Notes under the pieces: generated by a model
Told to the model about the DNA's origin: nothing
What the model saw: only the letters and a program-made list of their open reading frames with translations
Database searches by the model: none
Program-made: the position numbers and the translations under genes
Origin: Promethearchaeota archaeon
GTDB taxonomy: Archaea; Asgardarchaeota; Odinarchaeia; Odinarchaeales; JBHLKK01
Reading direction: 5' to 3'
NCBI GenBank assembly: GCA_048939465.1
Contig: JBHLPL010000108.1
Span: 1-6,713, forward strand
DNA length: 6,713 bases
Part shown: in pieces, positions 1 to 1,268 of the stretch
How the letters are laid out: every line of letters starts with the position of its first letter
Position numbering within the stretch: position 1 is the first letter of the stretch

Positions 1-753
1 AAGTATTTTGACGAGATGCACCACCTATATGTCCCAAATAGTAAATACAAGAATGTTATTCGAGATTATTATAAGCTACTTGATGAGGAAATTGGTTCCA
101 TCCTTAGTCTTCTCAATGATGATGTAGCTATAATGATAGTCTCAGATCATGGTGTAAAGCGAATGAAAGGTGCTTTTGCTGTTAACCAATGGCTTATTGA
201 GGAAGGTTTATTAAAAATAAGGAATCCCAATATACTCAAAACCAAGAAACAGGTTGAATTTAAGAGTCTTGACGTGGATTGGAGGTCTACGGTTGCTTGG
301 GCCTGGGGAGGGTACTACTCACGCGTGTTTCTTAACGTCAAGGGACGAGAGCCTGAGGGCTTAATAGATCAAGACGACTATGAGAACATGAGAAGCATGG
401 TAGCAAGGCGAATAGTGCAAATAAGAGGACCCGATGGTAAGAAATGGAATACTAGTGTGTATTACCCTGAAAACGTATATCCTAAAGCTATCGGCGATAA
501 ACCAGATATGCTGGTGTATCTTGATGATCTTTCATGGCGTGCTGCTGGAACGCTAGGATATGATACGAATTATTTGCCTGAAAATGATATAGGTCCTGAC
601 GACGCTGTACACTCAAGGCATGGTGTTTTTGCTCTGCACACACGAGAAATGGCTTCTTCAAAACGCGTGCGGCTTACAATATACGACTTTGCGCCAACAA
701 TTTTGAAGTTGTTTGGCATAAAAAAAGAGTTTAGGGGACACAGTGTTTTTTGA
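1..753 (+). CDS. Alkaline phosphatase superfamily protein (type I phosphodiesterase/nucleotide pyrophosphatase-like, COG3379-like), C-terminal part; 5'-truncated by window edge
   Basis: The frame is open from base 1 (KYFDE precedes the listed Met at 16), so the real start lies upstream. Contains the AlkP metal-ligand motif IMIVSDHG and a late His motif GPDDAVHSRHG, followed by the typical C-terminal 'IYDFAPTILKLFG'. The nucleophile-bearing N-terminus is outside the window. Confidence 0.85.
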   Translation, partial: KYFDEMHHLYVPNSKYKNVIRDYYKLLDEEIGSILSLLNDDVAIMIVSDHGVKRMKGAFAVNQWLIEEGLLKIRNPNILKTKKQVEFKSLDVDWRSTVAWAWGGYYSRVFLNVKGREPEGLIDQDDYENMRSMVARRIVQIRGPDGKKWNTSVYYPENVYPKAIGDKPDMLVYLDDLSWRAAGTLGYDTNYLPENDIGPDDAVHSRHGVFALHTREMASSKRVRLTIYDFAPTILKLFGIKKEFRGHSVF

Positions 754-1268
754 CTTTTGTGATCTGGCTAACAGGACCCAGTGGTGCTGGTAAAACAGCT
801 CTGGCAAACATATTAGAGAAAGAATTGAAAGAGATGGGAAAGAACGCAGAGGTATTAGATGGAGATGTAATACGTCGTACCCTGTATCCAGACATCGGCT
901 ATAGCAAAAATGCCAGAGAAATGCATAATAGGGTAGTTATCCACATAGCTGAGCTGTTGTCCAGGAACGGGGTTATTGCCATCATATCCCTAATATCTCC
1001 TTATCGCCGGATTCGAGAGTTTGCTCGAAATAAGCTTGGTCGACTCATCGAGATATATCTCAAGTGCCCTCTAGAGGTACGAATGCAGCGTGATCCAAAA
1101 GGATTATATGCAAAGGCCATACGTGGTGAAATCAAAGGTTTGACAGGCTATGATGGCGTCTATGAAGAACCAAAGAACCCAGAAGTAGTTTTGGAAACCA
1201 ATATGACGAGTGTTGAAAAAGAAGCAGAACTTGTGCTAAAAAAGGCAACAGAACTTGGCTATCTCTAG
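750..1268 (+). CDS. cysC: Adenylyl-sulfate (APS) kinase
   Basis: P-loop WLTGPSGAGKT, LDGD, ISLISPY, CPLEVRMQRDPKGLY and TGYDGVYEEP all match the CysC pattern. TTG start overlaps the upstream TGA stop (TTGA at 750-753), indicating translational coupling. Confidence 0.95.
   Translation: MTFVIWLTGPSGAGKTALANILEKELKEMGKNAEVLDGDVIRRTLYPDIGYSKNAREMHNRVVIHIAELLSRNGVIAIISLISPYRRIREFARNKLGRLIEIYLKCPLEVRMQRDPKGLYAKAIRGEIKGLTGYDGVYEEPKNPEVVLETNMTSVEKEAELVLKKATELGYL

Follow-up and report, generated by a model that had tools for sequence, protein, structure and literature searches.

The window analyzed here, 6,713 nucleotides long, is the whole of contig C45 (JBHLPL010000108.1) of a 91%-complete Promethearchaeota genome (G000), and it begins inside the gene of an alkaline phosphatase (AlkP)-superfamily enzyme that overlaps the adenylyl-sulfate kinase gene cysC. 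We found that this enzyme is co-inherited with a short C-terminal tail ending in LxxLGY, which is carried either by a separate ribbon-helix-helix (RHH) protein or by the enzyme itself, and which is predicted to dock into the active site. The reading that we tentatively favor is that the enzyme loads sulfate from 3'-phosphoadenosine-5'-phosphosulfate (PAPS) onto the tail tyrosine, and that the tyrosine relays it to AlkP-fold glycan sulfotransferases in a DltX/PatA-like manner. The main rival is a pyrophosphatase that serves the ATP sulfurylase Sat. Gene and operon are already known, with an assigned activity. An initial annotation of the window had noted the pairing with cysC beside glycan genes and had read it as a candidate non-canonical sulfation module; the observation is confirmed and its interpretation is partly supported.

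The window contributes the C-terminal part of the enzyme, including the metal ligands D263, H264 and H418 and the N409-D414 loop. Residues 1-212, with D16, Thr54, D207 and H211, are found on contig C65, in a half gene at its end (C65:1-637, minus strand) that stops two codons before the join with the window. An intact protein of 464 aa is present in independent assemblies (P0001, P0123), and P0001 includes the window open reading frame (ORF) exactly. The join is supported because a locus from the same genus (L001) shows the genes of a family 2 glycosyltransferase (GT2), the RHH protein, Sat, the AlkP enzyme, CysC and a family 4 glycosyltransferase (GT4) in one piece. On C65, the genes for a sulfatase-like protein (P0359), the RHH protein, Sat and the N-terminal half of the enzyme follow each other on the same strand, with a GT2 gene on the opposite strand. 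The operon here reads RHH-sat-AlkP-cysC. As initially described, the AlkP ORF overlaps cysC by 4 nt (TTGA, 750-753); the overlap is also 4 nt in L001, as ATGA, and suggests translational coupling.

The RHH protein (P0360) has an RHH/CopG-like N-terminus, with weak NikR matches, and a C-terminal near-invariant acidic helix that closes in LxxLGY. K66, L69, L72, G73 and Y74 are invariant in all 57 RHH-tail sequences, and only 3 of the 9,147 frames in this genome end in an LxxLGY-type tail, one of them being this gene. We surveyed 80 related loci from archaea and bacteria and found the RHH-tail gene in 64. Nine of the 16 remaining loci are cut by a contig end, all five that were checked genome-wide carry the gene elsewhere, and two others remain. 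Genome surveys covered 80 Thermococcaceae and 71 Archaeoglobaceae, which are related genomes, so that the counts are not independent and describe a pattern. Among Thermococcaceae the RHH-tail gene was present in 56 of 57 genomes with an ortholog of the enzyme and in none of the 23 without; the sole exception has a decayed operon. The corresponding numbers for Archaeoglobaceae were 37/39 and 4/32, and three genomes of this family that carry cysC and no ortholog were devoid of the RHH-tail gene. Left out of these analyses were L066 and L079 (frameshift or stop) and seven near-duplicate homologs from set A1, L033 and several near-duplicate or secondary matches from A2, and P0461 from A3. Genomes G015 (a fragment), G099 and G107 were scored as ortholog-negative.

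The same tail also occurs in cis. It is fused to none of 120 near homologs and to 23 of 150 more distant representatives. Of 80 loci in the clade of P0161, 78 encode an enzyme with the tail fused on and carry no RHH-tail gene, and one is cut by a contig end. The one complete copy that has no fused tail (L200) has an RHH-tail gene directly upstream. The tail is hence present in cis or in trans, in a mutually exclusive manner. Other AlkP-fold genes adjoin the P0161-clade enzyme in 71/80 loci, and the complete frames of these neighbors have no tail (0/57 long, 0/31 sulfatase-like). Elsewhere, 106 of 119 long paralogs end in the same tail, as do 56 of 120 relatives of P0359, which have a Thr nucleophile in 113/120 and the sulfatase Arg in 0/120. 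The Thermococcales versions, and others that were inspected, have a similar C-terminal helix without the Tyr. Hand translation of the cloning primers for Agl30 and Agl31 of Halobacterium salinarum reads as LxxLGYx ends.

We predicted a complex of the enzyme with two zinc ions and tail residues 45-76, using our own alignments and three controls. It scored 0.84, the best control reaching 0.13. The mark applied is reached by 58/80 solved complexes and 2/110 mismatched pairs, a calibration that is rough for a score that expresses model confidence and was obtained with zinc and our own alignments. Runs agreed in at least 93% of contacts, with a predicted local distance difference test (pLDDT) of at least 69 for the partner. 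In the model, Tyr74 touches Thr54, Ile53, Gly74, Phe75 and Arg76, while Leu69 and Leu72 pack on Phe75, Ile88, Ile133, Asp161 and Arg208. The prediction supports binding of the tail helix with Tyr74 at the putative Thr54 nucleophile. Conservation is higher at the interface than in the remainder of the protein (0.92 vs 0.75), a difference that is confounded with the active site and has little weight. A sequence search of the PDB returned no similar complex.

P0001 matches PF01663 (E 1.4e-43) and no other Pfam family in the scan. Lacking matches to PF00685 and PF13469, it is not a canonical P-loop sulfotransferase, and lacking a match to PF00884, which its neighbor P0359 does match, it is not of the Agl30/Agl31 type. 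The predicted model (pLDDT 95.5) places nucleotide pyrophosphatase/phosphodiesterase (NPP) structures first among its fold matches, the closest being Xac NPP and ENPP5 (Z 29.4, root-mean-square deviation 3.4 A over 335 aligned residues, 11-15% identity). P0001 shares with them the fold, the Thr nucleophile and the two-metal ligands. It differs in being cytosolic, in having extra conserved basic residues and in a predicted peptide-binding groove. Among 134 homologs, D16, T54, D207, D263, H264 and H418 are invariant and H211 is kept in at least 90%. T54 aligns with the nucleophilic Thr in the PSLTFP motif of Xac NPP and stands in T-I-P-A-W, which is not the C/S-x-P-x-R (CxPxR) motif of formylglycine sulfatases. 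The retrieved N-terminus thus supplies the Thr nucleophile, and it has no hydrophobic segment. A hydropathy scan gave no sign of an anchor or export signal as in LtaS, EptA or MdoB, the top 19-residue value being 1.38 over the first beta strand, which starts at residue 9 in the model. P0001 is a cytosolic two-metal enzyme of the NPP type. Neither the part encoded in the window nor P0001 itself matched a PDB entry in sequence searches, and an atlas search returned generic names only. A profile of the family matched 4,455 clusters (50% identity) at E up to 1e-30.

The genomic context ties the enzyme to PAPS synthesis. The 80 loci contained cysC in 77, sat in 41, a DHH protein in 37 and TauE in 21; sat lies directly upstream here. 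The association with sat and cysC that the initial annotation had looked to is tight, and the pairing with cysC is not due to chance. In Thermococcaceae the ortholog was found in 57/80 genomes, and all 55 cysC-positive genomes are among those 57. In Archaeoglobaceae ortholog and cysC were both present in 36 genomes, discordant in 3 and 3, and both absent in 29. By comparison, sat occurred in 24 Archaeoglobaceae genomes that have no ortholog, and it was adjacent to the ortholog in 9/39. In this family the ortholog follows cysC, not sat. The DHH neighbor matches the characterized 3'-phosphoadenosine-5'-phosphate (PAP) phosphatase 8a8k (E 1.5e-81), and its presence in 37/80 loci implies PAP release. 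Other AlkP-fold proteins were encoded in 44/57 ortholog-positive and 0/23 ortholog-negative Thermococcaceae. Two decaying modules were seen: in G064 (L210) sat is truncated and the DHH gene is interrupted by toxin-antitoxin-like genes, and G085 (L115) retains a short cysC and DHH while the AlkP gene is absent.

We propose that the operon is a sulfate-activation and hand-over module. By their family assignments, Sat would form adenosine-5'-phosphosulfate (APS) and CysC would convert it to PAPS. The AlkP enzyme would bind the LxxLGY helix of the RHH protein, with Tyr74 beside Thr54, and most likely attack the sulfur of PAPS (possibly of APS), releasing PAP. The sulfuryl group would then pass via Thr54 to Tyr74. 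The resulting tyrosine O-sulfate, an aryl sulfate, could serve as donor for variable AlkP-fold acceptors such as P0359-like proteins, the long paralogs and Agl30/31-like enzymes, and these would sulfate glycans made by the neighboring glycosyltransferases. The carrier tail could sit on a separate protein, on the loader or on an acceptor enzyme. Hydrolysis of inorganic pyrophosphate (PPi), as published, would be incidental or secondary, PPi being an anhydride that resembles the phosphosulfate bond. We infer the roles of the families, loader or acceptor, from conservation and from adjacency to cysC. Co-inheritance, cis/trans exclusivity, the invariant Tyr, the predicted docking and the shared tails on candidate acceptors count for the shuttle. 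The co-occurrence with other AlkP-fold proteins, the tracking of cysC, the PAP phosphatase neighbor and the analogy with DltX/PatA point in the same direction. In the latter system an acyl group travels from one active site to another on a Tyr, which belongs either to a small free-standing protein or to a fused one (PMC12148441). As there, the Tyr here is invariant within a short C-terminal motif that occurs in cis or in trans, and the model predicts that this motif enters the loading site. DltX/PatA differs in its unrelated folds (MBOAT, SGNH), in the group carried (acyl, not sulfuryl), in its motif and in its site at the outer membrane face, whereas the present system is cytosolic; the analogy is one of working principle only. 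We give nearly the same tentative weight to a wider reading, in which many archaea and bacteria would sulfate glycans through such a relay, without P-loop sulfotransferases, with Tyr aryl sulfate as donor for Agl30/31-type enzymes and long paralogs, whose present annotations are sulfatase or phosphodiesterase, and with a carrier that here doubles as the RHH regulator of the operon.

Several points weigh against the shuttle. PPi hydrolysis, with a Km of 18.8 uM for TON_1705 (PMC9653972), is the only activity that we found reported for the family, and the nearest folds are NPPs, which attack phosphorus. The rough calibration of the complex score and the relatedness of the surveyed genomes count here too, and fused homologs may have taught the model this contact. 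In the model of a tailed long paralog, the tail helix reaches pLDDT 89 after a linker at 71, a pLDDT readout only. At the thresholds used, 13 of the 57 module-positive Thermococcaceae have neither an acceptor-type AlkP-fold enzyme nor a canonical sulfotransferase. In the fused P0161 clade, sat is adjacent in 7/80 loci and so is cysC. The present genome yielded no close DHH PAP phosphatase. Eleven halophile-like homologs (L246-L256) have a Ser nucleophile, lack the tail and have no sat gene closer than 1.5 kb. In our control panels neither Sat nor APS kinase was matched in Haloferax volcanii, although Agl30/31 function in that species, and this halophile donor question may break the generality of the model. 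As a separate observation, distant short halophile-like forms keep several of the predicted tail-contact residues, and one of their neighbors ends in the tail.

A copG-sat-pApase-NPP-cysC-tauE cluster is described in PMC8268124, where the NPP is speculated to remove PPi, the CopG protein is called a putative regulator and no sulfotransferase is identified in Pyrococcus yayanosii. In Thermococcus onnurineus, ACJ17195.1 lies between ACJ17194 (cysC) and ACJ17197 (sat) and is 66% identical to P0001 over 454 aa. By its position we gave it the tag TON_1705, using PMC4463584, which names TON_1705 a pyrophosphatase. Table 1 of PMC9653972, a secondary source, lists a kcat of 2.1/s and a kcat/Km of 1.1e5 for its PPi hydrolysis. 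The initial annotation, in setting the protein apart from generic phosphodiesterases, had missed both the cluster and this pyrophosphatase. Ortholog, operon position and all catalytic residues are common to both organisms, whereas the present locus is without DHH and TauE genes and has P0359 upstream. The accessible portions of the three papers assign PPi hydrolysis and do not mention the Tyr tail. In the literature searched, which covered few subscription papers, we found no report of the LxxLGY tail or its placement in the active site; searches for sulfotyrosine, shuttle or covalent intermediate in this system gave no match, which does not imply absence from print. A genetic precedent for AlkP-fold sulfotransferases, an idea already in the initial annotation, is offered by Agl30/31: deletion and heterologous expression showed these AlkP-superfamily proteins to be needed for glycan sulfation in Halobacterium salinarum, with no donor named (PMC11980604, in the sections available). 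The word PAPS is absent from the main text in those sections, which leave the mode of action open. Haloferax Agl7 is implicated in glycan sulfation as well (PMC3892788). Agl30/31 resemble the system here in superfamily and in their tail-like ends; as sulfatase-like acceptor-side enzymes they differ from P0001 and by description stand closer to P0359.

A dedicated inorganic pyrophosphatase would pull the unfavorable Sat reaction, with the tail as a pseudo-substrate inhibitor or docking device and with others transferring sulfate directly from PAPS. We regard this as rather unlikely. The name and kinetics of TON_1705 argue for it, as do family members joined to Sat (P0169, P0202) or a nucleotidyltransferase (P0213). 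In an MtATPS assay the rate was limited by PPi removal (PMC10322725), a membrane pyrophosphatase and no family I pyrophosphatase was found in this genome, and the high conservation would suit a small invariant substrate. Against this, the housekeeping pyrophosphatase Ton1914 of the same organism turns over at 3.0e4/s (PMC9653972), compared to 2.1/s. The gene is retained in the 30 of 39 Archaeoglobaceae where sat is not adjacent, and the fused clade accompanies other AlkP-fold genes much more often than sat, which is present in 6/23 of its loci of at least 10 kb. Further fusions join the family to CysC, GT2, pyruvate kinase and a methyltransferase, and a Tyr tail common to three AlkP-fold families is left unexplained. 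Within this set, P0202 and P0250 are fused to a pyruvate-kinase barrel, one of them also to Sat.

It is improbable, in our estimate, that the tail is a catalytic lid or internal intermediate of a PAPS-dependent sulfotransferase acting on a small molecule, a nucleotide sugar or a lipid-linked sugar, which comes closest to the initial annotation. Cis/trans exclusivity and the predicted docking would fit a lid equally well; the enzyme tracks cysC, glycan genes are nearby and no canonical sulfotransferase was found in this genome. The median identity of the enzyme across archaea and bacteria is 64% (Sat 56%, CysC 65%; 33 loci), which is unexpected for a glycan-specific enzyme. A Tyr against Thr54, as modeled, may leave little room for another acceptor, and many long paralogs and P0359 relatives have no Tyr tail, so that a lid would not be universal. 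The enzyme is unlikely to act on a glycan directly, as its conservation matches that of Sat and CysC and the predicted site suits a peptide Tyr. Quite improbable, too, is a regulatory circuit in which the enzyme adds a sulfate, phosphate or nucleotidyl group to Tyr74 of an RHH repressor, or removes one, and so reports PAPS or PPi to the operon promoter. NPP-type enzymes form Thr-nucleotidyl intermediates, and the RHH gene heads the operon, consistent with the putative regulator of the published cluster. Most loci of the fused clade have no RHH gene at all, tails also occur on enzymes, and the RHH-tail gene is retained when relocated from the operon. A separate scan for promoters did no better than chance (9 vs 6.6 +/- 2.7). 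Very improbable is a role in hydrolysis, be it of PAP as a phosphatase, of PAPS or APS for breakdown or recycling, or of glycan sulfate. The NPP-like fold and the missing close DHH PAP phosphatase in this genome would suit it; the 8a8k homolog adjoins the enzyme in many loci and covers the PAP recycling that had been considered initially, the CxPxR motif is absent, and hydrolysis would be wasteful beside PAPS synthesis.

The shuttle reading addresses how PAPS is used in archaea with no identified sulfotransferase (PMC8268124) and where sulfatase-fold Agl30/31 obtain their sulfate (PMC11980604). If it is true, protein tyrosine sulfate would act as a group carrier instead of a final mark, to call TON_1705 a pyrophosphatase would describe only part of its function, and many "sulfatase" and "alkaline phosphatase family" annotations, counting those in the 4,455-cluster set, would include biosynthetic enzymes. 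If it is false, a known operon, a known pyrophosphatase and an unexplained conserved tail are left.

No sulfotransferase or PAPS reductase was detected among the eight window ORFs scanned, as first reported, and PF13469 and PF00685 had no match in this genome. PF03567 and PF09037 had no match either, but control genomes were also silent. The absence of canonical sulfotransferases holds here and in most of the 80 loci (one positive by tblastn); it does not hold in T. onnurineus, where one lies three genes past cysC, nor in 12/57 ortholog-positive Thermococcaceae (0/23 ortholog-negative). The initial annotation had held that a canonical sulfotransferase nearby would speak against its proposal, and in these genomes that is the case. 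On the acceptor side, a second sulfatase-like protein, in which Thr replaces the formylglycine motif, is encoded at L213:5950-7173 (C32); it runs off the contig and is 57% identical to P0359. Both proteins are candidate acceptor-side sulfotransferases by their sequences. A 42-aa match on C104 may be the end of the C32 gene. The features of the two contigs are listed in the table. The description of a glycan locus stands as far as GT4 and nucleotide-sugar genes adjoin; the GT4 gene is convergent, on the opposite strand, and therefore outside the operon. Its product may build the acceptor glycan. In GC-rich metagenome loci, neighbor clustering was swamped by alternative frames, and the glycan context from clustering is unusable there.

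Table. Annotated features of the window and of the adjoining contig C65.
Feature	Coordinates	Strand	Remarks
AlkP-superfamily ORF	1..753	+	open at 5' end; C-terminal 250 aa of 464-aa P0001; PF01663 E 6.8e-16
cysC, adenylyl-sulfate kinase	750..1268	+	172 aa, TTG start; TIGR00455 215 bits, cut-off 138.7
GT4 glycosyltransferase	1280..2401	-	convergent with cysC; counterpart at same position in L001, 71% identical
NAD-dependent nucleotide-sugar epimerase/dehydratase	2569..3498	+	glycan locus context
RmlC-like dTDP-sugar epimerase	3505..3954	+	context
RmlA-like sugar-1-phosphate nucleotidyltransferase, hexapeptide repeats	3933..5042	+	context; also PPi-releasing
RmlD-like reductase	5125..6030	-	context
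sat	C65:644-1804	-	immediately upstream of AlkP N-terminal half
RHH/CopG-like LGY gene (P0360)	C65:1817-2047 (L097)	-	76 aa, invariant LxxLGY tail
Thr-"sulfatase" P0359, sulfatase-like	C65:2264-3703 (L097)	-	479 aa; PF00884 E 1.9e-35

Two further candidates were discarded. A tail of CysC as shuttle was considered, as CysC here ends in GYL, but a GY ending was seen in just 32 of the 65 CysC proteins that were clustered. A second cysC-like gene on C77 (34% identical; PF01583 E 3e-30) sits among unrelated genes and is not part of the module; it lies (L081:8943-11469) between an APH-like phosphotransferase and a protein that by eye resembles the inositol-monophosphatase family, and the region possibly belongs to another pathway or encodes a CysQ-like PAP phosphatase. 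A PAPS-reductase-domain protein on C139 is uninformative, its family being matched in 14/14 controls, and is a possible PAPS sink. In some loci, small genes with the tail come in twos or threes (L063:5709-6194, L075:4170-4654, L056:4613-4834, L217). The source of the T. onnurineus ortholog (P0307) names it "Protein involved in mitomycin biosynthesis", a possible hint at relatives within natural-product clusters. At the far end of the window, 6223-6711 on the minus strand encodes a C-terminal fragment with below-cut-off matches to PRK07208-type hypothetical proteins.

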